Source: Bacteroidota bacterium
GTDB lineage: Bacteria; Bacteroidota; Bacteroidia; Chitinophagales; Chitinophagaceae
Length of the DNA: 64,000 nt
Assembly: GCA_029555415.1 (NCBI GenBank)
Contig: JAKPSI010000067.1
Location: forward strand, 18,515-82,514
Direction of reading: 5' to 3'
Shown: one piece after another, positions 1-36,512 of the stretch
Layout: each line of letters begins with the position of its first letter
How positions within the stretch are numbered: the stretch's first letter is position 1
The notes under the pieces: model-generated
Told to the model about the DNA's origin: nothing
Database searches by the model: none
The model's input: only the letters and a program-made list of their open reading frames with translations
Position numbers and translations under genes: made by a program

Positions 1-1991
1 ATACGATCTCCGTGTCTCCTGCTGAAGAGATCAAAGTTGTACTTGCATCCGGACATTCCTTACAGGAAGTCAAAGTGAGTGCGGTACGCCGCAGTTCTTA
101 TCTCTCCCCACTGTCTCCCTTAATGACCACTGTGATGAGCGAACGGGAACTGTTCAAAGCGGCATGTTGTAACCTCAGTGAAAGTTTCGAGACCAATCCA
201 TCAGTCGATGTGGCGTATAATGATGCCGTCACAGGATCGCGTCAGATCCAGTTACTGGGACTGGCCGGCGTCTATTCGCAACTGACCCTGGAAAGTTTGC
301 CGGGGCCTCGTGGGCTGGCCGCTGCATATGGTATCAATTATATTCCCGGGCCCTGGATCGAATCGATCCAGTTGACAAGGGGTACGGGCTCTGTCGTGAA
401 CGGATATGAAAGCATCGCAGGTCAGATCAATGTGGAAATGAAGAAGCCGGAATCGGCTGAAAGATTCTATCTGAATGGCTATATCAACAGCATGGGCAAG
501 ACCGACCTGAACCTGGTGCTGAGTCAGAAACTCGGTAAGAAATGGTCCACCGCTTTATTGCTGCATGATGATTTCCTGCAAAACAAAACAGCGGATATGA
601 ATCATGATGGTTTCCGCGATCTGCCCACCGGTAATCAGTTCAGTGTTTTCAACCGCTGGAAGTATGATAACGCGAACGGATTGTTATTCCAGGCCGGTTT
701 CAAATACATGAAAGAGGACCGGACAGGAGGGGAAACCGCTTTCGATCCTTCCGTGGATAAGTTCAGTATGAATCACTACGGACTGGGGATACAGACCACG
801 CGTACGGAAGCATTCAGTAAACTGGGATATGTGTTTCCCCAGAAGAAATACAAAAGTATCGGCTTGCAGTTATCCGGTTTCCGGCACGATCAGCATGCTT
901 ATTACGGGATGATGATCTATAATGCGTTGCAGGATAATTTCTATGCGAACCTGATCTATCAGTCCATCATCGGTACCACCAAACATAAATTCAGGACCGG
1001 CCTGAGCATGAATGCGGATAAATTCCGTGAATTGTACCGCAGTGTCCGTTTCGACCGCAATGAAACGACACCAGGCGTATTCTTTGAATACACATTCAGT
1101 CCCGATGATAAATTCAGCGCTGTAGCGGGTCTCCGCGCGGATCATAACAGTATCTACGGAACATTCATCACTCCTCGGCTGCATATCCGCTATGCCCCCG
1201 TGAAAGGAACGACATTCCGGTTCAGTGGTGGACGCGGACAACGCACCGCGAATATCCTGGCTGATAACGCCGGATTATTGGCCAGTTCCCGCATAATCAT
1301 GATCATGGGTGGACAAAGTGGGAAGGCCTACGGACTGGATCAGGAAGTGGCCTGGAATGAGGGCGTGAGTCTGGAACAGAAATTCAGGTTATTCAACCGC
1401 AGCGCTTCGCTGGTGATGGATTTCTTCCGGACGGATTTCACAAAACAAGTGGTGACAGATCTGGAAGATCCGTCCTTCTTCATGTTCTATAACCTGAACG
1501 GTAAGTCCTTCTCCAACAGTTTCCAGGCGGAACTGGAAATGGAGCCGGTGCATAAACTGGAAGTGAGACTGGCATACCGTTTATTCGATGTAAAGAGCAC
1601 CTACAATCAGGTGCTGATGTCCCGTCCGCTGGTGTCGCGCAACCGCGCGTTCATGAACCTGGCTTATGATCTCAAAGGCTGGAAATTCGATTATACGATC
1701 AACGTGAACGGAAAGAAACGTTTACCGCCTACCGTTATCAACCCAACGGCTTACCATCGTGACAATGAATCACCTGCTTTTGTACAGATGAACGCACAGT
1801 TGAGTAAGACGGTCGGTAAGAAACATCCGGTCGATCTTTACATCGGTGGAGAGAACCTGACCAATTTCATGCAGGAGAACGCGATCGTTGCGGCCGATCA
1901 TCCATTCGGCCCTTATTTCGATGCATCCATGGTTTGGGGACCTGTCACCGGACGACAACTCTATGCCGGATTCCGGTACAAGATCAAATGA
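1..1991 (+). CDS. TonB-dependent outer-membrane receptor (N-terminus upstream of window)
   Basis: ORF open to the window edge. Plug-like segment (LLGLAGVYSQLTLESLPGPRGL..GTGSVVNGYESIAGQINVEMKKP) is followed by ~550 aa of beta-barrel-like sequence rich in G/N/Y/F/R. An intrinsic terminator follows. Confidence 0.65.
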   Translation, partial: TISVSPAEEIKVVLASGHSLQEVKVSAVRRSSYLSPLSPLMTTVMSERELFKAACCNLSESFETNPSVDVAYNDAVTGSRQIQLLGLAGVYSQLTLESLPGPRGLAAAYGINYIPGPWIESIQLTRGTGSVVNGYESIAGQINVEMKKPESAERFYLNGYINSMGKTDLNLVLSQKLGKKWSTALLLHDDFLQNKTADMNHDGFRDLPTGNQFSVFNRWKYDNANGLLFQAGFKYMKEDRTGGETAFDPSVDKFSMNHYGLGIQTTRTEAFSKLGYVFPQKKYKSIGLQLSGFRHDQHAYYGMMIYNALQDNFYANLIYQSIIGTTKHKFRTGLSMNADKFRELYRSVRFDRNETTPGVFFEYTFSPDDKFSAVAGLRADHNSIYGTFITPRLHIRYAPVKGTTFRFSGGRGQRTANILADNAGLLASSRIIMIMGGQSGKAYGLDQEVAWNEGVSLEQKFRLFNRSASLVMDFFRTDFTKQVVTDLEDPSFFMFYNLNGKSFSNSFQAELEMEPVHKLEVRLAYRLFDVKSTYNQVLMSRPLVSRNRAFMNLAYDLKGWKFDYTINVNGKKRLPPTVINPTAYHRDNESPAFVQMNAQLSKTVGKKHPVDLYIGGENLTNFMQENAIVAADHPFGPYFDASMVWGPVTGRQLYAGFRYKIK

Positions 1992-2000
1992 TAAAAAGTA

Positions 2001-2030
2001 AAACCCCGGTCGATGCCGGGGTTTTCTTTT
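2001..2030. terminator. Bidirectional rho-independent terminator
   Basis: aaaccccgg-tcgatg-ccggggttt hairpin flanked by A-run and T-run. It sits between the convergent 3' ends of the TBDR (+) and the MetA-OMP (-). Confidence 0.7.
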
Positions 2031-2041
2031 AGGATGTTTTT

Positions 2042-2806
2042 TTATTTTCCGATCCTTCTGCCGATATAAGACTTGAAGATGAAATGATCCGTTGCCGGCG
2101 TCAATCCCCAGCCCGGTCCGAAATTGAATTCCCATTTAGGGTTCACATACAGGTCCGTTACGAAGAATAACGCGTGTTCCTGTCCTTTCCAGCCGGGTAT
2201 CTGATTGAGTTGACCGAGACTGCCATAATATTCAACGCCCAATGTTGCTTTTGGAATGCTGAACGCCAGTTTGAATGCAGGTTCGAAAGCGGGGGTATGA
2301 TCGGAACTCACGCCTTTGAGGCCGATGCCCAGTACGGGATTGAAGGAGAAATATACCTTATTGAATTGCTTATCGAAGATGGGACGCAGTTCCACACTCC
2401 ATGTATCAGCGGAGTAGTTCTTGCCCTGATAGCCGACTTCGGCGGAAAGGCTGGCGCCGAAAGGCCATTTCCATTTTAAAGGAACACGTACACGCGGGCG
2501 GATATGTACTCCGACTAACTGATAACCATATGTCTTTGTATAATTGCTGAAGAGATAGAATCCCATTTCAAAACTATCCGTGAATCCATGTGTGATCTCC
2601 AGTGTTTCATGCAGTGCATGATAACTGGGCCGTACGCCTTCCTTCACCAGTTTTTCTCCATTGAAAGTGTAATTGCTGTGCAACTCGAAAATGGTCGTGT
2701 GTTTATCGAGAGTAGGAGAAGCATATACCTGGATCTCATAATTGTCCTGCGCCATCAAAGGGCTTATGCTGATGAATAAGCATATAGCTAACAGCGAATG
2801 TTTCAT
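2042..2806 (-). CDS. MetA-pathway/'transporter' family outer-membrane beta-barrel channel (PF13557-like), paralog 2
   Basis: The six-frame ORF 2042..3187 is trimmed to the internal Met (MKHSLLAICLFISISPLMAQ, signal peptide). This gives 254 aa, the same length as the upstream paralog. The alternating beta-strand pattern and aromatic-rich C-terminus match that paralog. Confidence 0.6.
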   Translation of the reverse strand: MKHSLLAICLFISISPLMAQDNYEIQVYASPTLDKHTTIFELHSNYTFNGEKLVKEGVRPSYHALHETLEITHGFTDSFEMGFYLFSNYTKTYGYQLVGVHIRPRVRVPLKWKWPFGASLSAEVGYQGKNYSADTWSVELRPIFDKQFNKVYFSFNPVLGIGLKGVSSDHTPAFEPAFKLAFSIPKATLGVEYYGSLGQLNQIPGWKGQEHALFFVTDLYVNPKWEFNFGPGWGLTPATDHFIFKSYIGRRIGK

Positions 2807-2819
2807 GTTTTGTTTCTGT

Positions 2820-3584
2820 TTATTCTGTTCGTGTATGTACCCTGAATGAAAAGCCCAGTGCAAAATAACTCTTTGGTGCTTCGGAGCTGATGCCTTTGCC
2901 GGCAGATATATCCACTTTGACGTCTTTGCTGATATAATAAGCCAAACCGGCATCCAGGCTGTGTTCCGGCCGGTGGCCATTACTGATCGAGCCGAAAGCT
3001 TCCAGATAGAAATACCATTTCTCACCGAGGTCGAACCCTTGTGCAATGGTATAGATCCATTGCGGGTGCCTTTTAAAACGATCCCATGTCGCGCCCAGGT
3101 TGACGCCCAATGCGCTTTTTTCGCCGGTCGTGTGCTGCAAGCAAAAACGGAACGAAGGCGACATGATACTGTCCTTGTAAACGCCACTGGAGAGAAAAGG
3201 AACGGTGGTATGCATGATCAGGGAGACCTTTGGCCGCCAGCCCTTTTCTTCACACAAGGCGGCTTTGAAACCGATCTCAACGGGTTCCAGTCCGCGTGAC
3301 CATTGGGGTTCCGGGATCACATGCTCATATTGACTGCTGATGGTAGTTTCCAGCCGTAATTCCATTTTTTTGAATCCGTATTTGAAAAGCGCGGTGGGGT
3401 GAACGAGCGAGTAGTCTTTTCCGATCGTATTTTCTTTGTTGAATCCGAATTCCGCCTGAAAATAACCACGCGGAACGGTGAATGCAGATTCCGTCTGGTC
3501 AGGCCGGTCGGTATCGATCTTTTCCTGTGCTGTACAGCTCAGGGATATGAAGAGGGATGTTATAAATATGAAACGGGTCCTCAT
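2820..3584 (-). CDS. MetA-pathway/'transporter' family outer-membrane beta-barrel channel, paralog 1
   Basis: Signal peptide, then 'DTDRPDQTESAFTVPRGYFQAEFG', which is the hallmark N-terminal motif of the family. 254 aa. The start ATG overlaps the cupin stop (ATGA). Confidence 0.65.
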   Translation of the reverse strand: MRTRFIFITSLFISLSCTAQEKIDTDRPDQTESAFTVPRGYFQAEFGFNKENTIGKDYSLVHPTALFKYGFKKMELRLETTISSQYEHVIPEPQWSRGLEPVEIGFKAALCEEKGWRPKVSLIMHTTVPFLSSGVYKDSIMSPSFRFCLQHTTGEKSALGVNLGATWDRFKRHPQWIYTIAQGFDLGEKWYFYLEAFGSISNGHRPEHSLDAGLAYYISKDVKVDISAGKGISSEAPKSYFALGFSFRVHTRTE

Positions 3585-3898
3585 TGTTTATAATCTTCAC
3601 GAACCGGCGCAAATACATCGATGAGCGTACAATCCACCGGAGCGATGGCTGAATGCAATACATTGGAAGGGATCACCTGCACCATGCCGGGTGTAAGGAT
3701 GCACCGTTCACCGCCGATCGTCATGTCCAGTTGTCCGGTCAGCATGTACGTGATCTGTTCCTGCGGATGGCTGTGCTCCGGCAGATGGCTGCCGGCTTTG
3801 ATCTCCACTAGTCCAAATGTCATATTCGTCCCGTGTTCATAATATCCGGTGATGCCGGCGATGAGGTCTTTGGCTTTGATATCCCTGATAGGTCTCAT
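3581..3898 (-). CDS. Cupin-domain protein (small single-domain cupin)
   Basis: Cupin motifs 'G..H.H...E' are visible (HLPEHSHPQEQITYMLTGQLDM..GG). Start chosen at MRPIRD, 4 bp after the stop of the upstream gene. The longer ORF version would overlap that gene by 62 bp. Confidence 0.6.
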   Translation of the reverse strand: MRPIRDIKAKDLIAGITGYYEHGTNMTFGLVEIKAGSHLPEHSHPQEQITYMLTGQLDMTIGGERCILTPGMVQVIPSNVLHSAIAPVDCTLIDVFAPVREDYKQ

Positions 3899-3902
3899 GA
3901 TC

Positions 3903-5099
3903 TTATTTTTCAAAATAACAGAAGGTGCCGCCCACCCATTCTTTGTCCTTGTTGTAGCGCACACCGATCATCTTGCCTTTACTCAAGCGGCCGAGATTAT
4001 TGGTGGGAACCGGCCGTGCTTCACCGTCCTTCCAGAAATAGAAGATCCGGATCTCCGCCTTGGCAGGCACATCGGGTGTTTCAATGATATCGGCATATTT
4101 CACTTTCCGTTGCAGGATCCAGTTCTCCGGGTCTTTTACTTTTTCGATATCAGCGGAGGTCACATCGATCACCACACCTTGTCCCGCGAAGGAGAACAAA
4201 GGTTTCAGCACATAATTCTCCAGGTCCGAAGGTATTTGCTTCACTTCATTCAGGAAGTAGGTTGCAGGTACATAGGGATGATGCAGGAAGGGCAGTGTGA
4301 ATTTGCTGATGCGGTAGAACCAGGCAGGGTGGGGTGCCCATTCCACATCAAGTGGTTGCAACAAGATCTTTCCCTGTTCCTGCACTTCTGCGGGTTGCTG
4401 CTCCAGATCATCAAAGATGATGCGGTTGTAGATCCGTTTGATGCGGGTCTTCACACCATCCCGCATATAATATAATCGATCTCCTTCCGCGATCAGTTCG
4501 GTCAGGCAGACCATACGGATACCGGTATAAGCTTCCGTGCAATAGAAGTCGATCCTTGTTTTTTGTTTTTTGGGGTAGATCTCCAGCAGGATCACTTCTG
4601 CGGGTTCATGTTCACCTACAATGATCTCTTTCAGGAGTTGGAGGTATGAGGCTTCATTATGTCCGCCCAGATAGCAGCTGAAATTTTCAGGCACCGGAAA
4701 ATGTCTGCGGAACACCTGATCCAGCAATACTTCCCACGCGAATAAAGTAGGGAATCCCTGCATCTCGATCAGCTGGGGTTCATATTCACCATCTTCATTG
4801 ATGCAGATACCGAAATCAAAAGCGATGAATTGAGTATGTGCGTTCTCACCGGGTACCTGCCACTGTTGTGGGATGGCGCGATCGGTCTGTTCTTTGAATT
4901 TCGGATCTGTGATCACATCCACGATATGCTCGCAGGCCGCGATCATTTTTTGTGTGAAATCCTTCGGAACGAACACCGGCGTTTCAGCCACACGGAATTC
5001 GATCTGTCCCGGGAAAGCGCTTTCAAGGTCCTTGAGGAAGGCCTGATACGTTTCCTGCGTAAATGCGGCATTAAAGGCTTTGCGGATAGCCGGGATCAT
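3903..5099 (-). CDS. Glutathionylspermidine-synthase-like preATP-grasp ligase (YgiC/YjfC-type)
   Basis: 398 aa. The C-terminal 'YVLKPLFSFAGQGVVIDV', 'FYFWKDGE' and 'HPYVPATYF' resemble E. coli YgiC as I recall it ('YVVKPIFSREGANVSIIE', 'HPNLLPAYF'). The length matches YgiC at about 386 aa. The resemblance is from memory, not a search. Confidence 0.5.
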   Translation of the reverse strand: MIPAIRKAFNAAFTQETYQAFLKDLESAFPGQIEFRVAETPVFVPKDFTQKMIAACEHIVDVITDPKFKEQTDRAIPQQWQVPGENAHTQFIAFDFGICINEDGEYEPQLIEMQGFPTLFAWEVLLDQVFRRHFPVPENFSCYLGGHNEASYLQLLKEIIVGEHEPAEVILLEIYPKKQKTRIDFYCTEAYTGIRMVCLTELIAEGDRLYYMRDGVKTRIKRIYNRIIFDDLEQQPAEVQEQGKILLQPLDVEWAPHPAWFYRISKFTLPFLHHPYVPATYFLNEVKQIPSDLENYVLKPLFSFAGQGVVIDVTSADIEKVKDPENWILQRKVKYADIIETPDVPAKAEIRIFYFWKDGEARPVPTNNLGRLSKGKMIGVRYNKDKEWVGGTFCYFEK

Positions 5100-5154
5100 G
5101 GCTTTGATGTTTTACGGAAAGTTAAGGATTGCGGTACGTGCTGCCAAAACAGCG

Positions 5155-6000
5155 TCAGGCAGGCTGGCAATGCAATTGTTCAATGGCCTGATTCAGGAAA
5201 TTGGGCAGGATGTGGGCATGGGTCCAGCGGATCTTATCCGGGTCATCCAGATGCTCCAGCATGCTTTCCAGTTTTTCAGCGCCATGGCTTTCGATCACGG
5301 TCTTTCTTTTTTCATCCGTCTTCAGGTACATGCTCATGCCCGGTGCATCCGCTTCCGGATGGAACTGGGTGCCGATCATACAATCACTGAAACGGATCCC
5401 CATGATCGCTCTTTCATAAGGCACATGCGGTCTGCTTTTCTCAATACAGAGGATACGTGCGCCCATGTCCTGCAATAATTCATGATGAGGCTGAATGACC
5501 TGGTAGTCGCGACTGTCCACCGCGTAAAAAGGGTCACGTAAGCCGGAGAATACGGTTTCTTCTTTTCCGCCATCCAGCATGTGAACCGGGAAAACACCGA
5601 ATGCGGTGGAACGGCGTTTGCAAACCAACCCGGCGTTGAAATAACGGCAGGCCAGCTGAAAGGAATGACAAATGAAGAAGATGTATTTTTTCTGCAGTCG
5701 CGAAGGATTGTTGTTCCATCTTTCCATTTCATCCAGCCAGTTGCACCAGGCGATATCCCAGTCGTCAAAACGCGTGGACAACGGATCGCCGGGACCTCCG
5801 CTAGAGATATAGATATCGTAACTGTTGTCGGGTAATTCTTTTTTAAGACGAACGTCGAATTCGTCCGTATGCAGGGAGAGCTGATGTGTCGCACTCCATT
5901 CCGCGAGTATCTCACGGATACAACGCATACCCTGGTTGGCGGCGCCTTCATAGAGGTCAAGGATGGCTACACGGACAGATCGGTTTTCGTTCCAGCTCAT
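5155..6000 (-). CDS. Class-I glutamine-amidotransferase-fold (GATase1 / peptidase C26-like) protein
   Basis: 'VRVAILDLYEG..' N-terminus, a candidate nucleophile elbow 'FFICHSFQLA' (G-x-C-x-G-x-Q-like), and a downstream His/Glu region. Confidence 0.55.
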   Translation of the reverse strand: MSWNENRSVRVAILDLYEGAANQGMRCIREILAEWSATHQLSLHTDEFDVRLKKELPDNSYDIYISSGGPGDPLSTRFDDWDIAWCNWLDEMERWNNNPSRLQKKYIFFICHSFQLACRYFNAGLVCKRRSTAFGVFPVHMLDGGKEETVFSGLRDPFYAVDSRDYQVIQPHHELLQDMGARILCIEKSRPHVPYERAIMGIRFSDCMIGTQFHPEADAPGMSMYLKTDEKRKTVIESHGAEKLESMLEHLDDPDKIRWTHAHILPNFLNQAIEQLHCQPA

Positions 6001-6113
6001 GATGCGGCAAACTTACTGCTTTTTAAACGTTTAAGCAGGCGATACCCGTATCAGAATTACCCACAAATGTGGATTTATTGCGATGTATTAAGGGTATTTG
6101 ATTACCGTTAAGT

Positions 6114-7754
6114 TTATTTTTTTTCGTAAACCTTTTTTCCGCCGAGCCAGGTCTGCAAGACAATCGTTTGCAATAATTCTTTTTCATTCGTCTTCATCAG
6201 GTCCTGATCCAGGATCACGAAATCAGCGTACTTCCCTTTTTCCAGACTTCCTTTTTCTTTTTCCTCAAAATTCGCACGGGCTGCCCAGATGGTCATGCCA
6301 CGTAAAGTTTCTTCGCGGCTCAGTGCATTCTCTTTCTGAAATCCGTTCTCCGGCCATCCTTTGCCGTCTTTTCTGGCCACTGCTGCATAGAATGTTTTGA
6401 ATGTGGAAACGTTCTCGACCGGGAAATCAGTTCCCAGAGGTATCCATCCGTTCTGATCATTCAATTGTTTGTACGCATAAGCACCTTTCACTCTTTCACC
6501 ACCCAAGCGATCCGCTGCCCAGTACATATCACTGGTGGCATGTGTCGGTTGTACGGAAGGAATGATGCTGTTATCACCGAACAAATGAAAATCGGCCGGG
6601 CTCACCACCTGCGCATGTTCCACGCGCCAGCGGAGGTCATTCTTTCCTTTCAGGTATTTGGCATACACATTCAGGGTCTCACGGTTGCCACTGTCGCCGA
6701 TCGCGTGTGTACACATCTGCCATCCCATGTCTTTGATCATGGATGCAACGGAATCAAAATGCGCGGGTTGACTCAGCAGGAATCCCGACCAGCCGGGTTT
6801 ATCACTGTAAGGTTGCAGCAAACAGGCGCCGCGTGAACCTAAAGCGCCATCCGCATATACTTTGAAGGAAGAGACGGTCAGATGTTCTGTTTTGATCTTA
6901 CCATTCTGTTTCGCCCAAATGAAATTCTGCGGATTGTCACTGAGCATCGCGTAAATACGCATGTTGAGTTCGCCTTTTTTCTGCAGACTGTCAATGGAAC
7001 GAATAGAAGCTGCATCCAGACCGCAATCGTCCACCGTAGTAAGTCCGTAACTGAAGCAATCCAGTTCCGCATCACTCAGTGCTTCCGTCACCGACACAGC
7101 GCTGGGAGCGGGGATGAATGAACTGACCAGGTCCACTGCATTATCAACAAGCAAGCCAGTGAGCTTACCATTCTTTGTCACTACATCACCACCGGTCAGG
7201 GTTTGTCCTGCTTTTACACCTGCGATCTCCAACGCTTTCGCATTAGCAATAGCGGCATGTCCGTCTATCCTTGTTAACAGCACCGGTCTGTCCGGATACA
7301 TTTCATTGAGTTTGCTGTTGTCCGGGAAATTCTTGTCTGCCCAGTCATTCTGATCCCAACCGCGGCCGATCAGCCATTCACCCGGGGTCATGGATTTACC
7401 GAAATCGGCACAAAAATGAATGATATCATCCCAGGAAGTCGTTCCTTCCAGATCCAGTTTTTGTTTGCCCAGACCATATGCCAGAAAATGTGCGTGCGCG
7501 TCGATGAAACCGGGATAGATGAATTTACCCTGTGCATCCAGCGTGTCCTTGGCCTGATAGGCGGCTTCCAGTTCACTGCGTTTACCGGTGGCCAGGATCT
7601 TGCCATCCGCGATCACCATGGCTTCAGCGGTACTGAAGGTGGAATCAACGGTATAGATCGTTGCATTGAATACAAGCAGATCGGCAGCCTGTTTCGACTT
7701 GCAGGCAAAGAGTACGATCGCGATCAGCAGGAGTGTGGGATATCTTTTCATCAT
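6114..7754 (-). CDS. Amidohydrolase-family metallo-hydrolase (Amidohydro_3-like), lipoprotein
   Basis: Lipobox LFAC, 'YPGFIDAHAHF' metal-binding HxH motif, 546 aa. Its stop overlaps the start of the upstream amidase by 4 bp. Confidence 0.75.
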   Translation of the reverse strand: MMKRYPTLLLIAIVLFACKSKQAADLLVFNATIYTVDSTFSTAEAMVIADGKILATGKRSELEAAYQAKDTLDAQGKFIYPGFIDAHAHFLAYGLGKQKLDLEGTTSWDDIIHFCADFGKSMTPGEWLIGRGWDQNDWADKNFPDNSKLNEMYPDRPVLLTRIDGHAAIANAKALEIAGVKAGQTLTGGDVVTKNGKLTGLLVDNAVDLVSSFIPAPSAVSVTEALSDAELDCFSYGLTTVDDCGLDAASIRSIDSLQKKGELNMRIYAMLSDNPQNFIWAKQNGKIKTEHLTVSSFKVYADGALGSRGACLLQPYSDKPGWSGFLLSQPAHFDSVASMIKDMGWQMCTHAIGDSGNRETLNVYAKYLKGKNDLRWRVEHAQVVSPADFHLFGDNSIIPSVQPTHATSDMYWAADRLGGERVKGAYAYKQLNDQNGWIPLGTDFPVENVSTFKTFYAAVARKDGKGWPENGFQKENALSREETLRGMTIWAARANFEEKEKGSLEKGKYADFVILDQDLMKTNEKELLQTIVLQTWLGGKKVYEKK

Positions 7755-9433
7755 TGTTTGAATTTTTCAGGGTGCAATTTGTTGAATTCAGTTTTGTCCT
7801 GATAGGCTTTTGCGGCCGCTAAGATAGTGGCTTCATCATATAATTGGCCGATCAGTGTGATACTGAGCGGGGACCCGCTTTTATTGAATCCGATCGGCAT
7901 ACATACCACCGGATTGCCGGTAAGATTGGTCATGGATAACTGCCTGCCCATGAATGTGGGCACGATCAGTACATCATAGGGCTTCATGAATTCATAGAAT
8001 TTTTTGCAGAGCTCATAGCGGTAACGGTTGGCATTGATGTATTCCGCTGCGGGAATGAGACGTGCCGAACGGAATGTATTGGGCCAGAAATTCTTATCCT
8101 GACGCTCCACCAGATCATCCCGGTTCGTCCTTGTCAATTCATCAAAAACGGCAGCGCATTCTGCATTCAGGATGATATTGACCAGATTCACGGGATACAT
8201 GGAGGAGTCCGGCAATTCGATCGCTTGCACATTAGCACCCAGCGCGCGGTATTGATCCAGTACTTTCCATTCAGGCGCATCGGCGGCTAGTCTCTTGAAA
8301 TAGTTGGCTGCATAGGCGATCCGGATCTTCTTCCAGTCCGATTTGCCGGTATAGTTGAAAGCATGATCCACGGAACCTGCATCCAGTCCGTCCGTTCCTT
8401 TGATCGCGGCATAAACGAACGCGGCGTCTTCCGCACTGCGGCAGATGGGGCCTGCTTTATCCAGACTCCAGCATAATACCATAGCGCCGGAGCGGGAAAC
8501 GGTCCCGAAGGTGGGTCTTAAACCTGTTGCTCCGCACCGGGTGGAAGGGGATACGATCGAACCCAGCGTTTCGGTGCCGATGGCAAAGGGCAGTAAGCCA
8601 GCTGCGGTAGCGGCCGCGGAACCGGCGGATGATCCGCTGGAGCCCTGTTGCAGATTCCAGGGGTTCTTTGTTTCTCCGCCGAACCATTTATTGTTATTCG
8701 CCAGCGCGCCCATGGATAATTTTGCACAGAGCACCGCACCGGCTTTTTTCAGTTGCGTATACACATATGCATCCTGATCGATCATCTGGTCCTTATAAGG
8801 TGCCGAACCCCAGGTGGTCTTGTATCCTTTTACAGCGAACAGATCCTTCAATCCGTATGGTATGCCATGCAAAGGCCCATGCCAGATCCCTTTCTTCAGA
8901 TCGGCATCCGCCTGCATGGCCTGTTGCAATGCGAGGTCTTCCGTCAGCGTAATGACGCATTGTAAAGTGTCTCCCCATTTTTTCAAGCGGCTCAGAAAGA
9001 ATTTGGTCAGTTCTACGGAACTGATCTTTTTATGATAGATGAGGGACGCTAATTTCGGGATCGGCCAGAATGCGAGCTCCTCGCGGTTCTGCGGAAGATT
9101 CACATTGTCCGGGTTGTTCCACCTGATCTGAGCTTGTTTGGTCGGGACCGGTACTCCATAAGGCGCGGGCTGGAATGCGAAAGGGAAGGGGATGCTGTTC
9201 TCCGGCAAGCGTTCATGCATGCCTTTGTATAACTGCAGGTCATACCGCAATACATCCAGCAGCGAATCCGCTTCAGATTCCGTATAATCCAGATCGTAGA
9301 GTTTCACGAATTCACGCACCTGTTTAATGCTGTCTGAATGAGTTTGTGCATGGGAGGAAGTTAAGATCAGGGAAGCCGTGACGGCCAGCAAGTATCTCAT
9401 AAGCTTTTGTTTCAGTGTCTGTAATTTCGGCAA
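7751..9433 (-). CDS. Amidase-signature (AS) family amidase, secreted
   Basis: Signal peptide, then the Gly/Ser-rich AS signature 'GSSGSSAGSAAATAAG..GTETLGSIVSPS'. Confidence 0.75.
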   Translation of the reverse strand: MPKLQTLKQKLMRYLLAVTASLILTSSHAQTHSDSIKQVREFVKLYDLDYTESEADSLLDVLRYDLQLYKGMHERLPENSIPFPFAFQPAPYGVPVPTKQAQIRWNNPDNVNLPQNREELAFWPIPKLASLIYHKKISSVELTKFFLSRLKKWGDTLQCVITLTEDLALQQAMQADADLKKGIWHGPLHGIPYGLKDLFAVKGYKTTWGSAPYKDQMIDQDAYVYTQLKKAGAVLCAKLSMGALANNNKWFGGETKNPWNLQQGSSGSSAGSAAATAAGLLPFAIGTETLGSIVSPSTRCGATGLRPTFGTVSRSGAMVLCWSLDKAGPICRSAEDAAFVYAAIKGTDGLDAGSVDHAFNYTGKSDWKKIRIAYAANYFKRLAADAPEWKVLDQYRALGANVQAIELPDSSMYPVNLVNIILNAECAAVFDELTRTNRDDLVERQDKNFWPNTFRSARLIPAAEYINANRYRYELCKKFYEFMKPYDVLIVPTFMGRQLSMTNLTGNPVVCMPIGFNKSGSPLSITLIGQLYDEATILAAAKAYQDKTEFNKLHPEKFKQ

Positions 9434-9466
9434 TATTTAATTAACTTTTCTCCCAAATACCTGCTT

Positions 9467-10498
9467 ATGCGCATCTTCATCGTTTTTCTGTCATTCGTTC
9501 TGATCAGCGGCTGCAGCCAGCTGGAGAAAAAAGGCAAGGGGTCAGAAACACCTGTTGCGGAGTACTTCAATTACAGTGAATCCGGTGTAAAGTCCGCAGG
9601 TGTTCAGATGATCCCCATTGAAACACCCGTGGGGAAATTCAAGGTATGGACCAAACGCTTCGGCAACAATCCGAAGATCAAGATCCTGCTCCTGCATGGC
9701 GGCCCGGCCATGACGCATGAATACATGGAATGTTTTGAGAGCTTCTTCCCAAAAGAAGGATTCGAGTTCTATGAATACGACCAGCTGGGGTCTTATTACA
9801 GTGATCAGCCGACCGACAGCAGCCTGTGGACCACTGCCCGTTTCGTGGAAGAAGTGGAGCAGGTGCGCAAGGCCATTGGTGCGGATAAAAGCAATTTTTA
9901 TTTACTGGGTAATTCATGGGGCGGGATCCTGGCCATGGAATACGCGCTGAAATACCAGGATAACATGAAAGGCTTGCTGGTAGCGAATATGATGGCCAGC
10001 TGCCCGGAATATGGTCGCTATGCGGAAGAAGTACTGTCGAAACAAATGGATACGGCGGTTGTGCGTGAAGTAAAAGCGATGGAAGCGAAAGGGGATTATG
10101 CAAATCCGCGTTATATGGAACTGCTCATCCCAAATTTCTATAAACAACATCTCTGCAGACTTGAAGAATGGCCGGATGGTTTCAACCGTTCCATGAAACA
10201 TGCCAACGGTACGATCTATACTATGATGCAGGGCCCTTCAGAATTCGGCATCAGTGGCCGGCTTGCGAACTGGGATGTAAAAGCAAGATTAAAGGAACTG
10301 CATGTACCCACCCTGATGGTCGGCGCTAAATTCGATACGATGGATCCCAAAGCCATGGAAGAACAGAGCAAACTGGTACAGCATGGCAGATACCTGTATT
10401 GCCCGAACGGAAGTCATTTGTCCATGTGGGACGACCAGGAAGTATTCATGAACGGTGTGATCCGTTTCATTAAAGACGTGGATTCGGGCTCGTTCTAG
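9467..10498 (+). CDS. Prolyl aminopeptidase / proline iminopeptidase-family alpha/beta hydrolase (S33), lipoprotein
   Basis: Lipobox LISGC. 'LLLHGGPAMTHEY' and nucleophile elbow 'GNSWGG'. Confidence 0.7.
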   Translation: MRIFIVFLSFVLISGCSQLEKKGKGSETPVAEYFNYSESGVKSAGVQMIPIETPVGKFKVWTKRFGNNPKIKILLLHGGPAMTHEYMECFESFFPKEGFEFYEYDQLGSYYSDQPTDSSLWTTARFVEEVEQVRKAIGADKSNFYLLGNSWGGILAMEYALKYQDNMKGLLVANMMASCPEYGRYAEEVLSKQMDTAVVREVKAMEAKGDYANPRYMELLIPNFYKQHLCRLEEWPDGFNRSMKHANGTIYTMMQGPSEFGISGRLANWDVKARLKELHVPTLMVGAKFDTMDPKAMEEQSKLVQHGRYLYCPNGSHLSMWDDQEVFMNGVIRFIKDVDSGSF

Positions 10499-10549
10499 CC
10501 GGCAAATAGTTACTTTCTAAAACATGAATTGCTTCCGGGGAGCAGGGAT

Positions 10550-10632
10550 CCATTCTCCATTCTCCGTTATCCACTATCCATTATCCATTATCCATTATCC
10601 ACTATCCGTTCTCCATTATCAATTATCATATT
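10550..10632. repeat. Tandem oligo-repeat array (ATTCTCC/ATTATCC units; reverse of the GGAKAATG module)
   Basis: ccattctccattctccgttatccactatccattatccattatccattatccactatccgttctccattatcaattatc. It abuts the GCS2 stop. Confidence 0.85.
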
Positions 10633-11735
10633 CCGTGCAGGTACTGGTCCTGAATGTAACCCACTACCTGACTGAGGTCCTTGGTCTTTTCGAATACGGC
10701 CAGCTGGCGGTCAGCGCCCGTTCCGTTCTCCAGGATCTTGTGTACATAAGCCAGGCGGTGCCTGCTTCCCAGATGATCCAGTACGGGTTCCACGAATTCC
10801 AGTAACTCATAGATCAGCGCACGGGTATTTACTTCCTCTTCTTTGCCGAAATCGATCAGACGGCCATCGATACCATAACGGCTGGCGCGCCATTTATTCT
10901 CATTGATGAGCGGACGCGGGTATTGAATGAAGTTGAGATTCTTGCTGCGCAACATATAGATCCTCGCGCAAATGGCCTGGAATAAGGCCGCGATCGCTAT
11001 CGTTTCATCCACTGTCATCGGCACATCACAGATCCTGAATTCAACAGTATTGAAGAAGGGATGCACACGCAGGTCCCACCAGATCTTCTTCGCATTGTCA
11101 ATGCAATTCGTTTTGATCAGCAGCTTCACATAGTTATCGTATGATTCAATGCTGTCGAACGCTTCCGGAATACCGGTACGCGGGAACTTGTCGAATACTT
11201 TCGTGCGGAATGATTTATAGCCGGTCAGCCTTCCTTCCCAGAAAGGGGAGTTGGTACTGAGCGCGTAAATATGCGGAAGGAAATAACGGGTGGAATTGGC
11301 GATATGATTGGCCATCTCACGCGTTTCCATACCCACGTGAACATGCAAACCAAAGATGAGATTACTTCTTGCAGCTTCCTGTAATTCATTCACGATCTCG
11401 CTGTAGCGGATATGGTCCGTGATCAGCTGACTTTCCCAGTGACTGAACGGGTGCGTTCCCGCCGCGCCCATGGAGTAGCCCAGACTGCTTGCGATACCGC
11501 TGATGGTCTTGCGCAGGGTGGCCACATCCGCCCATGCTTCATCCACATCGGCACAGATGTCCGTACCTACTTCCACAACGGCCTGGTGCATTTCTGCCTT
11601 GACCTTGTCCTTGATCACTTTCTGACCCTCATGTACGATCTGCTGTTCATGGCTTTTCAGTTCCCTTGTTACCGGGTCCAGCACCATGTACTCTTCTTCT
11701 ACGCCGAGTGTGAAACTTTTATAATTCAGATGCAT
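10626..11735 (-). CDS. Glutamate-cysteine ligase family 2 / YbdK-type carboxylate-amine ligase
   Basis: 'FTLGVEEEYMVLD', 'GTHPF', 'GLHVHVG', 'LSTNSPFW' and 'WWDLRVHPFFNTVEFRICD' all match YbdK/GCS2. Confidence 0.85.
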   Translation of the reverse strand: MHLNYKSFTLGVEEEYMVLDPVTRELKSHEQQIVHEGQKVIKDKVKAEMHQAVVEVGTDICADVDEAWADVATLRKTISGIASSLGYSMGAAGTHPFSHWESQLITDHIRYSEIVNELQEAARSNLIFGLHVHVGMETREMANHIANSTRYFLPHIYALSTNSPFWEGRLTGYKSFRTKVFDKFPRTGIPEAFDSIESYDNYVKLLIKTNCIDNAKKIWWDLRVHPFFNTVEFRICDVPMTVDETIAIAALFQAICARIYMLRSKNLNFIQYPRPLINENKWRASRYGIDGRLIDFGKEEEVNTRALIYELLEFVEPVLDHLGSRHRLAYVHKILENGTGADRQLAVFEKTKDLSQVVGYIQDQYLHGI

Positions 11736-11763
11736 ATTGATTGTTTAGATGCTACTTAGATCG

Positions 11764-11800
11764 GACTACTGACTAACGACTAATGACTAATGACTATAGC
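11764..11800. repeat. Tandem GACTAA/GACTAC hexamer-type repeat
   Basis: gactactgactaacgactaatgactaatgactat. The same family recurs, inverted at 13744 and direct at 51760. Confidence 0.8.
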
Positions 11801-12747
11801 CCAAGGTTCTGTTTTTGTGAACTTCGTTTTACATACTCTCCCCACGTCAGATTATCACCACCGTTATTCGCCAGTGCTTTTTCGATGGCGTAATTGGCGG
11901 CGGTTTCCACCACCCATTCAAAGTTCTCTTCACCAACACTGGTCAGTTCCGCATCCGGAGCGGGGTTGCAGAAGTCGATGGCATAAGGTACGCCATCCCT
12001 TACCGCCAGCTCCACAGTGTTGAAGTCGTAACCCAGGAATTTATTGATCTTGAGAACGATGTCGGTCATTTGTTTCAGTCTTTCCGGAGAAGGATTGAAA
12101 TCGGCCACATACCGCAGGTGGTGCGGGTTGCGGGGTTCGTACGACATGATGCGGACATGCTTGCCACCGATGCAATAACAGCGGTAGTATTCCGTGAACA
12201 CGATCTCTTCCTGCAGCAGCATCACCAGTTGTCCGGTTTCGCTGTGCTTCTCGAAGAAATCGTTGGAGTCCGTAAGTTTATATACGTGTTTCCAGCCGCC
12301 ACCCGCGAAAGGTTTCATATATGCGGGAAAGCCAACGTATTTGAAGATCGCATCCCAGTCGAGCGGGAATGCCAGATTACTGAATGATTCATTACTCGTA
12401 TCATCCGGCAGATCACGGGAGGGGAGGATGACCGTTTTCGGAACGGGCACATCCACTTTCGTCATCAGGCAATTGTTGAAATATTTATCATCCGCACTCC
12501 ACCAGAACGGATTGTTGATGACAGCTGTTCCGGTGAGCGCAGCATTCTTCAGCCAGGTGCGGTAAAAAGGTACATCCTGAGAGATGCGGTCGATGATCAC
12601 AGCATAACCGCTGGATTCGCCCTGCATGGCTTTATCGATACGTACCGGTTCGGCAACGATACCCGGGATATTCTTACTGTTCACACGTGATACGAAGGTT
12701 TCGGGGAAGGAGCGTTCTTTCCCGTGCAGGATGCCGATCTTTTTCAT
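11794..12747 (-). CDS. ATP-grasp-fold ligase (putative peptide/amide ligase)
   Basis: 317 aa. 'AYMKPFAGGGWKHVYKL' has a Lys + Gly-rich loop. 'VELAVRDGVPYAIDFCN' looks like an ExN-like Mg site. A pre-ATP-grasp N-domain 'KKIGILHG' is present. It sits directly downstream of GCS2. Confidence 0.5.
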   Translation of the reverse strand: MKKIGILHGKERSFPETFVSRVNSKNIPGIVAEPVRIDKAMQGESSGYAVIIDRISQDVPFYRTWLKNAALTGTAVINNPFWWSADDKYFNNCLMTKVDVPVPKTVILPSRDLPDDTSNESFSNLAFPLDWDAIFKYVGFPAYMKPFAGGGWKHVYKLTDSNDFFEKHSETGQLVMLLQEEIVFTEYYRCYCIGGKHVRIMSYEPRNPHHLRYVADFNPSPERLKQMTDIVLKINKFLGYDFNTVELAVRDGVPYAIDFCNPAPDAELTSVGEENFEWVVETAANYAIEKALANNGGDNLTWGEYVKRSSQKQNLGL

Positions 12748-12925
12748 AAAGAGTTTTTAGGTGATGGTATTTGACGGCCACTTCACAACTGGACATGCCG
12801 GGGAACAGGCCTGATCAAATTTATTTTTTCATACCCAATATAGCAAATAAAGCCATCCGTTTTACGGTCTGCGGCAGGCGCAGGTTCAAATGCCTTTTTA
12901 GCCTGAAATCCTTATTTTTGGCGCC

Positions 12926-13747
12926 ATGCACCGTGTACAGGATTCCTCCCTTCACATAGAATCGGATACTATTGAATCGGCATTTCTCGGGAGAGAAGTG
13001 AAAGTGGATTATTACTGCCCCACAGCGGTACCGGACCCTTCCCGGATGAGCCTGCTGCTGATCAATGATGGACAGGATATGGCAGCCATGCATTTCAGTG
13101 CCATTCTGGAAAAACTCTTTGCCGGGAAAAAGATCGAACCCATTCTTTGTGTCGCGATCCATTGCGGACCGGAACGGAAAATGGAATATGGGGTAGCGGC
13201 TGTACCTGATTACCTCGGCAGAGGAGCGAAGGCCGGGGCTTATACTTCATTCCTGTTTGAGGAATTGCTGCCCGGACTCCGTGAAAAGTTCAACGTTCCT
13301 TCTTTTAAAGAGAAAGCTTTCGCCGGTTTTTCACTGGGCGGACTCAGCGCCCTGGATATCGTCTGGAGCCATCCGGCTGAATTCAGTAAAGTGGGTGTAT
13401 TCTCCGGTTCATTCTGGTGGCGGAGTCTGGATCAGTCGGATGAAGCATATGACGACGATCTCCACCGCATCATGCATCAGCAGATCCGTAACGGCGCCTG
13501 CCAGCCCTGGCTGAAGTTCTTTTTTCAGTGCGGTGCCCTGGATGAGACCAAGGACCGTAACCATAACGGCATCATCGACTCCATTGATGATACCCTCGAT
13601 CTGATCTCTGAACTGGAGCAGATCGGCTACGACCGCAATACCGATATTCAATATCTCGAACTTCCGGATGGCAAACATGATGTTGCCACCTGGGGGAAGG
13701 CGATGCCGGCATTCCTGGAGTGGGCATTCGGAACGAGTAGTTTGTAG
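12926..13747 (+). CDS. Esterase-family alpha/beta hydrolase (PF00756-like 'putative esterase')
   Basis: 'AGFSLGGLSALD' nucleophile elbow, 273 aa, divergent from the ATP-grasp gene. Confidence 0.6.
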   Translation: MHRVQDSSLHIESDTIESAFLGREVKVDYYCPTAVPDPSRMSLLLINDGQDMAAMHFSAILEKLFAGKKIEPILCVAIHCGPERKMEYGVAAVPDYLGRGAKAGAYTSFLFEELLPGLREKFNVPSFKEKAFAGFSLGGLSALDIVWSHPAEFSKVGVFSGSFWWRSLDQSDEAYDDDLHRIMHQQIRNGACQPWLKFFFQCGALDETKDRNHNGIIDSIDDTLDLISELEQIGYDRNTDIQYLELPDGKHDVATWGKAMPAFLEWAFGTSSL

Positions 13748-13771
13748 TCTTTAGTCGGTAGTCTTTAGTCC
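13744..13771. repeat. Tandem GTAGTCTTTAGTC repeat (inverted GACTAM family)
   Basis: gtagtctttagtcggtagtctttagtcc, immediately after the esterase stop. Confidence 0.8.
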
Positions 13772-14007
13772 TTTCTAAGCAAAGTTATTTACAGATTCGT
13801 CTAATGATTTTTTTTGGGCTGTTCCGGGTTGCGGGTTTCTGGTTGCGGGTCGCGCCGTTGAAAGCAGCACGCCGTGGCCGGTATATTTCACCTATCATCG
13901 GGTTTTAAAATCGATTTAATGTAACTGCAACTAATATCTGGATGTTAATATAAAATGGTTATGCAGCAGGGGAGATGAAGTGTATGTTAGAACCCTCTTG
14001 CAGCGTA

Positions 14008-14088: not shown

Positions 14089-17000
14089 TTAGTTGAAGAT
14101 ATAACGGATACCGAACTGGATCGAGTAAGTCGATGCAGTACTTACGTTATCACGGAATGTAGTGGTGATCGGATTACCACGGTCAGTTGCCAGACGGAAG
14201 GTCGGACGAACTGTACCACCTGCCACCAGTGAAGCCTGGTTCTGGGGAACGAGGATAGAGCTGGCGTTGATCGTTTTGATCTTACCCCATGAAGGGTTCA
14301 GGAGGTTACCGAGATTGAATACGTCGATCGTGAACTGAACGCTGTTACGGTTCTTACCGAGGTTAACGAACAGGTCCTGCATGAATTTAGCATCCAGCTG
14401 ATTTCTCCAGGGGATCTGTGCACCGTTACGTTCTGCGTATTGTCCTTTGTGTTTGCGCAGGTAACGATCCTGATCGATGTAAGCGAAGAACAGGTCTTTC
14501 TGCTGTTGTGCAGTATAAGTAACACCATTGGTCGTCAGGGGAACGAAGTCGATCTCAGTCTGATCTTTCGGAATGTAGATCAGGTCGAAGTTCGTACCAT
14601 CACGGTTGATGTCGGCTGAATAAGTATAAGAGAAACGACCCTGGATACCACCTTCATACACCATAGAGATCGTAGTCGCGAGGTGTTTGAAGTATTCTTT
14701 GCGGTAAGAGAAGTAAGCGATCACACGGTCAGGTGTAACGAAACCGGCATAACCCAGCTGAGCGAAGTTAGAACCGTTCACGTTAGCAGTACCCTGCCAT
14801 GCGGACAGCGGCTGGTCGCCACTACCGTCGAACAGGTTAGCTGACTGAGACTTGGTGTAAGCAACTGCACCGGAGAAACCGTTGCGGAATTGTTTTTCAA
14901 GTTTCAGGGTCAGTGAAGCGTAATAACCTTGTTTACCATTACCCAGTACGATCGCGTTGAAAGCCTGGTTACCAGTGGGGCTCGCCTGACCAGCTGTTGT
15001 CAGCGGGTTGATGAACTTAGTGGTATTGGTAGCAGGGTAGATCATACGGTTATCCGGATAACCTGCAACGTTCAGGGCTTGAGGAGCAACCAGGTTCGGG
15101 TTCGTGAAGAACGCCGTGTTCACGTCTTTATTGAAGATACCTTCCATGGAGAAGATCCAACCGTTGCCGAGTTTGAAGTCAGCAGCGAGGCTTGTTTTCC
15201 AGGTCTGGGGGTTCTTGAAATTAGGATCCAGCAGAGATACAGTGCTCGGGATAACGGTACCTGCTACAGGCACAGTTGCCGGGCGGTAAGCAGCCGGATC
15301 GGGGTTGAAGGGGCCAGGCGTGTTTGCCTGTCCTGTATAAGTCTGCGTAACCTGCAGCATACCGGCATCACCAGCCTGGCTCACGATCCATACGAAGGGA
15401 ATGCGGCCGGTGAAGATACCTGTACCACCACGGAGCTGGAAGGAACGGTCACCGTAAACATCCCAGTTGAATCCGATACGGGGAGATACCATCAGACGTG
15501 CTTTAGGCAGTGTACCTGTATTCAGTTTCAGACCATTTGCGAAGGTGAGCGCAGCCACCAGCGGATGGGTCGGAAGCGGTTCCGGATATTTCGGCTGGTC
15601 AACACGCAGACCGATCGTCAGTTTCAGTTTCTTGTTCACAGCGATCTCATCCTGTCCGTAAACAGAATACTGCTGGAATTTGAAGCTCGGGAAAGCCTGA
15701 GCGAAGTTCGGGGACAGAGAATAAGTGATACCGAAATCAAGCGGTTTTACACCACTGATGAAATCGTTCCAGGAAGCGAAAGTATAGTAGCTGGTACCGA
15801 AACGCTGGAAGCCGTTGATGGTTTCGCTGTATTCAGCCTGAGCACCTACTGTCCAGCTGTGTTTTTTCACTGTCCAGCTGAGGTTATCCACAAATGAGTA
15901 CATTTTCACTTTACGGAGGTTACCATAAGTGAAAGGCTCATATCCGAATGATGTATAAGGAGAACCTGCGTTCAGGATATCAACGAAGGGGAAGATCTGG
16001 CTGTCGGATTTGCGGGAGTCATTCTGATAAGTGAATGTACCGCGGAAAGTGTTATTCAGTTTTTTACCGATCTGTGAGTTCAGCTCACCAGCTAAAGAGT
16101 AGAAGTTAGCACCCTGGAAATAGTTGGAGTTCTTGAACCACAGGGCGTTGATATCAGTACGGCCGGAACCTGTTGTGAAAGCCGTCAGCGGGGAACGGGA
16201 AGTGCTGGGCGGGTTAGGCTCACCACCTTCAACCTGGCTGTAACGGATGTTCATGCGGTTCTTGCTGTTGATGTTCCAGTCGATACGACCAAGGATCTTC
16301 TTACGGGTGATCTCAGTGCTGTAGTTATCGTATCCACCTGTTACATAACCATAAGTGTTGAACAGGTAAGAACTGTAAGACTGAAGGTCAGCAGCGGTAG
16401 CACGGGAGATCTGGGGGCTGCTGCCGAAAGGAGATGAAGCGGTAGCGGCAAAACGTGTTTGAACGGTTTTGGGCTGTGTTTCATTCTCGTAGTTGAGGAA
16501 GAAGAACAGTTTGTTCTTGATGATGGGACCGCCAATCCGGAAACCCACTTGTTTGTAATCCTCGATCGGGCGAACGAATGTGGTCTTCTCCACTTTGTCA
16601 CCCCTTTGTTTTTCCGTACGGAAATATTTGTAAACAGAACCTGAGAATTTGTTAGTACCAGCGCGGGTTACAGCGTTGATCGCACCACCGATGAAACCTG
16701 ATTGACGAACGTCGAAAGGCGTTACGTTCACAGAGATCTCCTCAACGGCATCCAGGGAAACCGGAGCACCGTTGGCCGGCAGGTTGTTACCGATACCGAA
16801 ACTATTGTTGAAGTCGGCACCATCGATCGTGAAGTTATTCTGACGGAAGTTACCACCGCCTACGGATGAACCGTTCGACTGAGGAGTAGCACGTGTCAGG
16901 TCATTCAGGTTACGCGTGATCGTCGGGAGTCTTTCGATCTCACGACGGCCGATATTCGTAACAGCACCTGTACGGTTTGAGTTGAGGATCGGATTCTTCC

Positions 17001-36383: not shown

Positions 36384-36512
36384 ATGCAGGCAGAACAAAA
36401 AGATCATATGCAGGATAATGGAAAATGGGGAGGCTGGTACGCCTTTGTCATCCTGTTCCTGGTATTGCAGATCGTATTGTTCAGCCTCTTCACCCGATAT
36501 TTTTCATGAGTA
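36384..36512 (+). CDS. Small membrane protein (42 aa, one TM segment)
   Basis: MQAEQKDHMQDNGKWGGWYAFVILFLVLQIVLFSLFTRYFS. Its TGA overlaps the symporter ATG (ATGA). Confidence 0.45.

Follow-up and report, generated by a model that had tools for sequence, protein, structure and literature searches.

What might a glutamine-amidotransferase-fold protein, an ATP-grasp ligase, a small cupin and two outer-membrane barrels be doing together in a single run of genes? The question is raised by five minus-strand genes (6000..2042) in a 64,000-nucleotide (nt) stretch of a Chitinophagaceae genome (contig JAKPSI010000067.1, positions 18,515 to 82,514; hereafter the window, which amounts to 128 kb with both strands together). 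The first-pass annotation read them as an operon in which the first two proteins, here called GAT and LIG, could form a split synthetase/amidase cycle, followed by the cupin (CUP) and the barrels (OM1 and OM2). We find that GAT-LIG is a functional unit inside a larger cassette comprising a RimK-like ligase, a GCS2 ligase, a hydrolase and LIG, and that the cupin and both barrels are lineage-specific additions. On balance, we lean towards reading the run as the downstream half of a conserved cassette of amide ligases and a hydrolase, which would make and trim a small glutathione-like amide compound. The features of the run are the following:

6008..6015, minus strand: promoter-like Bacteroidota -7 motif TAAGTTTG (exact TAnnTTTG, 15 nt 5' of the GAT start)
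5155..6000, minus strand: GAT, a class-I glutamine-amidotransferase-fold protein of 281 amino acids (aa) with a Cys-His-Glu triad, predicted thiol amidohydrolase
3903..5099, minus strand: LIG (398 aa), from a new ligase family of the circularly permuted GspS/YgiC/eukaryotic-glutathione (GSH)-synthetase ATP-grasp clade
3581..3898, minus strand: CUP (105 aa), a small single-domain cupin with a metal-binding His/Glu motif, lineage-specific accessory
2820..3584, minus strand: OM1 (254 aa), a MetA/Phenol_MetA_deg-family outer-membrane beta-barrel with a signal peptide
2042..2806, minus strand: OM2 (254 aa), a second predicted outer-membrane barrel, of a separate family, with a signal peptide
2000..2025, minus strand: intrinsic-terminator-like hairpin closing the run (10-base-pair (bp) stem with 6 G-C pairs, T-run)

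The conservation of GAT and LIG was analysed in 80 loci from genomes, 80 from metagenomes and 14 of distant representatives, with neighbouring genes clustered for 171 loci. In 92 of these 171 loci, LIG is directly preceded by GAT on the same strand, at LIG identities ranging from 42 to 100%, and the co-conservation of the pair is thus genuine. GAT accompanies LIG in 40 of the 47 loci at 74-100% LIG identity, in 32 of 44 at 68-74% and in 15 of 21 at 62-68%, then in 3 of 8 at 55-62% and 6 of 10 at 40-55%, and the pair is 70-80% identical throughout Chitinophagaceae. At 43% LIG identity, in loci L089 and L090 (whose ligase, P0128, is labelled by its source as coming from a Phycisphaerales metagenome-assembled genome), GAT-LIG lies between recF/dciA and thiS/thiC and the other genes of the run are absent. 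The pair is interrupted in some genomes: about 8-10 close relatives have genes for a small chagasin-like protein and a secreted peptidase of the papain family (C1) between GAT and LIG (L004, positions 6323-7878, and L005, L010, L011, L015, L016, L024 and L052).

The five genes are not co-conserved as the unit that had been supposed, and few relatives have the full set of five. A cupin lies 3' of LIG only at LIG identities of at least 65% (79 loci), sometimes with a DUF2214 protein or a small lipoprotein in between in close relatives; in L082, a ligase of 35% identity is followed by an unrelated Cupin_2 protein. About one third of close relatives encode a barrel of the OM1 or OM2 type after LIG, and 2 of 58 encode both. 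OM1 orthologs are found 3' of LIG in 18 loci and OM2 orthologs in 20, the latter down to 50% LIG identity (L088), and barrels immediately follow LIG, with no cupin, in L088, L101, L105, L114, L116 and L139 (OM1 orthologs in the last four).

With two further ligase genes linked to it, R2K and GCS2 (12747-10626), which the first-pass annotation had left out, the pair no longer looks like a two-enzyme cycle but like part of a pathway with several ligases. These two genes lie 4.6 kb upstream of GAT, on the same strand as GAT-LIG, and are separated from it by three genes for hydrolases:

11794..12747, minus strand: R2K, a RimK/LysX-like ATP-grasp ligase of 317 aa, first gene of the extended cassette
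10626..11735, minus strand: YbdK-type GCS2 carboxylate-amine ligase of 369 aa, second gene of the extended cassette
9467..10498, plus strand: S33-like alpha/beta-hydrolase lipoprotein, predicted to be secreted, between GCS2 and AMI
9433..7751, minus strand: AMI, an amidase-signature protein with a signal peptide (Pfam Amidase, 9e-73)
7754..6114, minus strand: AMH, an Amidohydro_3 lipoprotein (Amidohydro_3, 1.5e-84)

The window GCS2 is 75-79% identical to the GCS2 encoded directly 5' of GAT-LIG in L157 (79%) and L144. The order R2K-GCS2-GAT-LIG is found in L103, L104, L144, L150, L157, L159, L161 and L162, and the order R2K-GCS2-M29-LIG in L084, L149 and L169, where an M29 aminopeptidase occupies the GAT slot. 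Counting both forms, R2K-GCS2-(GAT or M29)-LIG is collinear in 21 loci and the window, and R2K orthologs adjoin GCS2 in 14 other loci. At 42% LIG identity, GCS2-M29-LIG is still contiguous (L084), and in L086 GCS2 overlaps LIG by 4 nt. Three types of ATP-dependent amide-forming ligases and one triad cysteine enzyme are thus repeatedly encoded together.

The identity of GCS2 is clear, with 194 bits against PF04107 (cutoff 21, E-value (E) 4e-57) and 513.6 bits against NF010039, 'carboxylate-amine ligase' (cutoff 371). R2K stays below the cutoffs of the profiles that it resembles: it scores 27.2 bits against rimK_fam TIGR00768 (cutoff 143.4, E 2.3e-6), E 2.6e-6 against LysX and E 0.011 against Pfam R2K_2, and hhalign aligns it with E. 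coli RimK collinearly over 195 columns, albeit weakly (E 0.025). An exact TAnnTTTG motif is present 76 nt 5' of R2K. As a side observation, about 11 copies of the heptamer ATCCATT are located just 3' of the GCS2 stop (window positions 10548-10627), and about five copies of GACTAAT lie in the 58-nt R2K-GCS2 spacer (11764-11796).

AMI and AMH overlap by 4 nt and appear to be translationally coupled, their signal peptide and lipobox being read from the sequence. Among close relatives, 40 of 51 loci have AMH upstream and 19 of 49 have AMI. Below 65% LIG identity both are absent and GCS2 abuts GAT, so that the three secreted hydrolase genes (AMI, AMH and the alpha/beta-hydrolase) look like a Chitinophagaceae-specific insertion between GCS2 and GAT. 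AMI and AMH were also considered as the core of the system, and rejected because they are missing below 65% LIG identity.

Within the window, the open reading frame (ORF) list and the sequence agree exactly with the layout first described for the five genes. The spacers measure 55 nt between GAT and LIG, 4 nt between LIG and CUP, -4 nt between CUP and OM1 (an ATGA stop/start overlap at 3584..3581) and 13 nt between OM1 and OM2. The closing hairpin (2025..2000) separates OM2 from a convergent TonB-dependent receptor gene (12..1991, plus strand) and is flanked by T-rich sequence both ways, hence common to both converging genes. The 4-nt gap and the overlapping stop and start codons indicate translational coupling. 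No convincing terminator splits the run, the sole minus-strand candidate inside it being a 5-bp stem within LIG (3937..3923), and terminator-like sites are not enriched in the region (14, against 9.3 ± 3.4 in shuffles). The -7 motif found before GAT is absent 5' of LIG, CUP, OM1 and OM2, which would fit a transcription unit starting at GAT; it is a consensus match only, with 21 exact matches to TAnnTTTG in the whole window on both strands. The gene order recurs in well over 100 independent contigs, and the arrangement is therefore not due to chance. GC content is flat at about 0.49 across positions 1-14000 and gives no indication of an island gained by horizontal transfer, and the window contains no Rfam family or tRNA, hence no riboswitch hint at a ligand.

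The first-pass annotation likened LIG to the E. coli YgiC/YjfC family and expected a profile match to GSP_synth/preATP-grasp. Membership did not stand, while the resemblance did. Pfam and NCBIfam scans of LIG returned nothing at threshold: it scores 13.6 bits against GSP_synth (PF03738), below the gathering cutoff of 29.3 (E 0.038), and none of 59 diverse family members reaches this threshold (best E 1.1e-4), weak sub-threshold matches being obtained for 19 of them with GSP_synth and for 11 with CP_ATPgrasp_2. A profile built from these 59 homologs does retrieve YgiC from the PDB (E 1e-4), and hhalign (local mode, relaxed threshold) aligns LIG with YgiC collinearly over 322 columns (93%, E 3e-7). 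In this alignment, D95 and E112-x-Q114 of LIG correspond to the D...E-N-N of YgiC, and K299-P-L-F-S-F-A-G-x-G to the ATP loop KPIFSREGANV, so that D95, E112, K299 and G306/G308 all align with YgiC residues. LIG displays the circularly permuted pre-ATP-grasp plus ATP-grasp fold of the GspS/YgiC family. By these profile comparisons, LIG represents a new family within the circularly permuted ATP-grasp clade, distantly related to glutathionylspermidine synthetase, and is best filed as working like GSP_synth (common fold and part of the core motifs), not as a member of it.

This family comprises at least 1313 clusters at 50% identity (at least 8000 candidates in a word-indexed search), is absent from Pfam and NCBIfam, and its members are everywhere annotated as 'hypothetical'. 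Profile searches with distant homologs returned mostly Chitinophagaceae again, owing to the word index. One member, P0127 (L085, positions 8001-10613), is an 870-aa protein fusing a sodium:solute symporter to a LIG homolog (46% identity), a hint that an imported solute can be a substrate of the ligase; a symporter gene of the same family as the fused part is found elsewhere in the window (36425-38227, plus strand). Four homologs (P0158, P0164, P0194 and P0199; L087, positions 545-2221) appear to have a signal peptide and carry about 160 additional N-terminal residues, rich in Ala, that match no Pfam family. This is odd for an ATP-dependent enzyme; either a membrane anchor or an error in gene calling could account for it. 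In the most distant clade sampled (L081, positions 4710-7688; 30% identity), a 992-aa protein with a Spermine_synth domain is encoded upstream on the same strand, but we gave no weight to the polyamine link that this lone case suggests.

GAT has the GATase1 fold and the nucleophile cysteine that had been attributed to it: it matches PF00117 with 28.3 bits (cutoff 22.8), as do all 33 homologs tested, and C111 (FFICHSFQ), H214-P215-E216 (GTQFHPE) and the oxyanion loop G68-G69-P70-G71 are invariant in the alignment of homologs. Two profiles had been expected for 5155..6000, and only GATase1 was found, as Peptidase_C26 (PF07722) matched neither GAT nor any of the 33 homologs; the HTS profile gave weak matches in 7 of 33. 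Searches of GAT against PDB sequences with phmmer and profiles returned nothing meaningful. Gamma-glutamyl peptidase GGP1 is among its nearest structural neighbours, a match which is indicative only, as are all fold matches of the AlphaFold model, and the many response-regulator structure matches are noise from the flavodoxin-like fold.

These properties are the starting point of the main rival explanation, in which GAT would channel ammonia to the acyl-phosphate formed by LIG, converting a carboxylate into a carboxamide, so that the two proteins would be the subunits of a glutamine-dependent amidoligase. Carbamoyl-phosphate synthetase (CarA/CarB) and GatD/MurT follow this logic. A match to PF00117 instead of Peptidase_C26, a full triad with the SGGPG oxyanion loop kept, and a tight and wide position of GAT directly 5' of LIG (92 loci), typical of amidotransferase/synthase pairs, are all in keeping with it. 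However, the nucleophile motif is FICHSFQ and not the usual G-x-C-x-G-x-Q, we know of no GspS/YgiC-fold ligase using ammonia, and about 2 kb of unrelated secreted-protein genes split GAT and LIG in 8 close relatives. In addition, the M29 aminopeptidase found in the GAT slot at three loci is unable to supply ammonia. We consider an amidoligase unlikely, while taking it more seriously than any other rival.

The same M29 substitution argues for a hydrolytic role of GAT, as does the earlier reading of similar neighbourhoods: Iyer, Burroughs and Aravind described in 2008 carboxylate-amine ligases beside 'glutamine amidotransferase-like thiol peptidases' and interpreted these associations as glutathione-related peptide synthesis (PMC2588565). 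A weak FGase-like amidohydrolase encoded after ligase and cupin in L082 counts on the same side, as does the presence of GGP1 among the structural neighbours of GAT. We thus favour GAT being a hydrolase that would act on the product of the cassette or on a precursor. The proposed hydrolytic counter-activity survives in this form, whereas the two-enzyme cycle in which it was placed gives way to a pathway with several ligases.

The downstream genes bear on a second alternative. The cupin assignment holds, with 54.4 bits against Cupin_2 (PF07883; cutoff 27.2, E 1e-14), a best PDB match to 4e2g (E 4e-17) and a metal motif, HSHPQEQ...H (H-x-H-x3-E ... H), read in the sequence. The two barrels had been described as tandem, paralogous MetA-family channels, which is correct for the family of OM1 (PF13557, 56.7 bits, cutoff 22, E 4.8e-15, profile positions 1-241 of 242). 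For OM2, no Pfam family matches even at E ≤ 10, PF13557 included, and BLASTP finds no similarity to OM1 (E 0.43), although the two families align by hhalign (88%, E 2.8e-6, 219 columns). OM1 and OM2 are thus, as far as their profiles tell, remote relatives and not recent paralogs, and we rejected a recent tandem duplication on the BLASTP result and on a similarity visible between profiles only.

With such barrels, the run could serve the catabolism or detoxification of an imported amine by tagging, in the style of the Puu (putrescine) or Atd/Tdn (aniline) systems: the barrels would admit the compound, the ligase would cap its amino group by attaching an amino acid, the resulting conjugate would be modified by the cupin, and GAT would remove the tag. 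The PuuA/PuuD and AtdA1/AtdA2 pairs, each with a ligase and a GATase-fold hydrolase, work by such tagging. The family of OM1 is that of the 'MetA pathway of phenol degradation' barrels, several lineages have a barrel of the OM1 or OM2 type immediately after the ligase, LIG homolog P0127 is fused to a sodium:solute symporter, and periplasmic amidase and amidohydrolase genes lie just upstream of GAT. Against this stand the absence of barrels and cupin from most loci, the location of the L089 pair among housekeeping genes, a pair identity of 70-80% over an entire bacterial family, uncommon among xenobiotic pathways, and the fact that no oxygenase, dehydrogenase or regulator is conserved with the pair; moreover, three ligases exceed what tagging needs. 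We hold this explanation to be improbable.

PuuA/PuuD, AtdA1/AtdA2 and the neighbourhoods described in 2008 nonetheless share with GAT-LIG an amide-forming ligase beside a stand-alone putative hydrolase of the GATase fold with a triad (PMC2588565), and the cassette also contains a GS-fold ligase (GCS2). It differs from these systems in that the tightest partner of GAT is an ATP-grasp and not a GS-fold ligase, in the lack of a Peptidase_C26 match for GAT, and in having no oxidising enzymes alongside.

A third possibility is the modification of peptide or protein C-termini, with the RimK-like and YgiC-like ligases adding residues or polyamines and GATase or M29 trimming them. RimK itself modifies ribosomal protein S6. 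YgiC/YjfC, whose substrates the first-pass annotation called unknown, are credited with ligating spermidine to peptide C-termini: this peptide-spermidine ligase activity, reported in 2023, is cited in two later papers (PMC11762307, PMC12568646) and RefSeq now names YgiC accordingly. Eleven of the 59 LIG-family members also weakly match CP_ATPgrasp_2, a predicted peptide-tagging family. Nevertheless, ORF-based clustering of neighbours detected no conserved small precursor gene of at least 80 aa beside the cassette, and GCS2/YbdK enzymes are small-molecule ligases, which leaves this possibility very doubtful. Finally, the idea that the five genes are neighbours by descent only, with no common function, draws on the conservation of cupin, barrels, amidase and amidohydrolase just in close relatives, where synteny may be inherited, but is barely credible given that GAT-LIG adjacency persists to 42-46% LIG identity in different contexts, that in distant clades the ligase has independently come to lie beside barrels and cupins again (L088, L082), and that the 4-nt gap and overlapping codons point to translational coupling.

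We thus return to the conserved cassette of amide ligases and a hydrolase, of which the run would be the downstream half. Its ancestral order, found in many lineages, would have been a RimK-like ATP-grasp, a YbdK-type GCS2, a hydrolase (GATase-fold or M29) and the GspS/YgiC-fold ligase; in Chitinophagaceae, three secreted hydrolase genes would then have been inserted between GCS2 and GAT, and the cupin and two barrels added downstream. The cytoplasmic ligases would act one after another, using ATP to convert carboxylates into acyl-phosphates and assembling a small peptide of the gamma-glutamyl type or a peptide-amine conjugate, following the logic of GshA, then GshB, then glutathionylspermidine synthetase. 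GAT, through C111, H214 and E216, would hydrolyse an amide bond of the product or of a precursor, allowing turnover or trimming, and the cupin and barrels could serve to modify the compound or to carry it through the outer membrane.

Several points weigh against this reading, beginning with the enzymes themselves. The Arg of the family R-x-D is Ala in LIG and the Mg-binding Asn of E-x-N is a nearly invariant Gln114. The AlphaFold model of GAT is poor, with a predicted local distance difference test (pLDDT) score of 56, and its PF00117 match leaves room for an ammonia-donating amidotransferase, while the replacement of GAT by M29 is limited to three loci. R2K, assigned through sub-threshold scores, can be called RimK-like only. 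As for the cassette, only about 12 of some 30 more distant loci with enough flanking sequence have GCS2 and R2K in the vicinity of LIG, several LIG clades are solitary or have other neighbours, and strict co-transcription is not required, since unrelated genes split the partners in some close relatives. Folds, catalytic motifs, gene order and conservation are observed; what we infer from them is which substrates are used, in which direction the pathway runs and that GAT acts as a hydrolase.

Comparison with known systems places the cassette among the predicted amidoligase/peptidase metabolite systems, in which linked successive ligases are a known theme (PMC4431377). The closest parallel in logic is GshA/GshB/GspSA: the cassette likewise has a GCS2, an ATP-grasp of the RimK/GshB class, a GspS-fold ligase and a cysteine amidohydrolase, which together have the logic of a pathway that assembles a tripeptide, couples it to an amine and cleaves the conjugate by hydrolysis. 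However, its components are all non-orthologous or very distant, and the amidase is GATase-fold. In bifunctional GspSA the amidase is a CHAP domain, which was detected neither in the five proteins of the run nor in any fusion protein examined; the neighbour of LIG is a GATase-fold cysteine enzyme instead.

Similarly, the likeness of LIG to YgiC/YjfC and to the GspS synthetase domain (PF03738) is limited to about 15% identity, below the Pfam gathering score, and some family members match CP_ATPgrasp_2 about equally well. YgiC is partnered with TolC and YgiB, whereas the partners of LIG are GATase, GCS2 and a RimK-like ligase. In E. coli, tolC-ygiB-ygiC (L171, positions 1116-4582) forms an operon in which YgiC, the closest structural relative, stands with the outer-membrane channel TolC and an outer-membrane lipoprotein; TolC beside YgiC parallels the barrels after LIG, which may be a coincidence. 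The circularly permuted ATP-grasp systems of CP_ATPgrasp_1 and CP_ATPgrasp_2 (3n6x) are defined by alpha-E, transglutaminase and Anbu partners, and none of these defining partner genes was seen in any locus examined. Finally, the fungal Cp1B, the ATP-grasp enzyme of E-64 biosynthesis, shares 14% identity with LIG and illustrates that the same fold also ligates non-amino-acid carboxylates, although it is eukaryotic and its pathway context differs (epoxysuccinate warhead, ANL-family amide synthetase).

A more specific version of the proposal is that soil Bacteroidota and some other phyla make a new low-molecular-weight, glutathione- or glutathionylspermidine-like peptide-amine conjugate with wholly non-canonical enzymes, GCS2 forming the first amide and the RimK-like ligase the second, LIG adding the amine and the GATase-fold amidase or M29 recycling the conjugate, with the Chitinophagaceae cupin and barrels tying the compound to the cell envelope or to export. 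We regard this version as speculative and put its chances low. Separately, the window encodes a full-length gamma-glutamyltranspeptidase (26264-27988, minus strand; PF01019, E 1e-160) about 14 kb from the cassette, and because of this gene the organism is predicted to handle gamma-glutamyl compounds outside the cytoplasm. Two ordinary envelope genes lie nearby, one for a 1623-aa TamB-like protein of the translocation and assembly module (TAM; 18764-23635, minus strand) and one for a 1094-aa TonB-dependent-receptor-like ORF (14089-17373).

Our literature search found no paper describing the cassette, which may have been catalogued earlier. LIG homologs are annotated as hypothetical and GAT is routinely mis-annotated, public databases labelling its homologs 'GMP synthase' or 'homoserine O-succinyltransferase'. 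The LIG family is large and strongly conserved among Chitinophagaceae, an abundant group in soil and wastewater. The four-enzyme cassette offers a concrete, testable route to a new small-molecule pathway and gives a physiological context to YbdK/GCS2 and YgiC-like ligases. If its product is a thiol or a polyamine conjugate, the cassette would bear on the redox and stress biology of a major environmental phylum.

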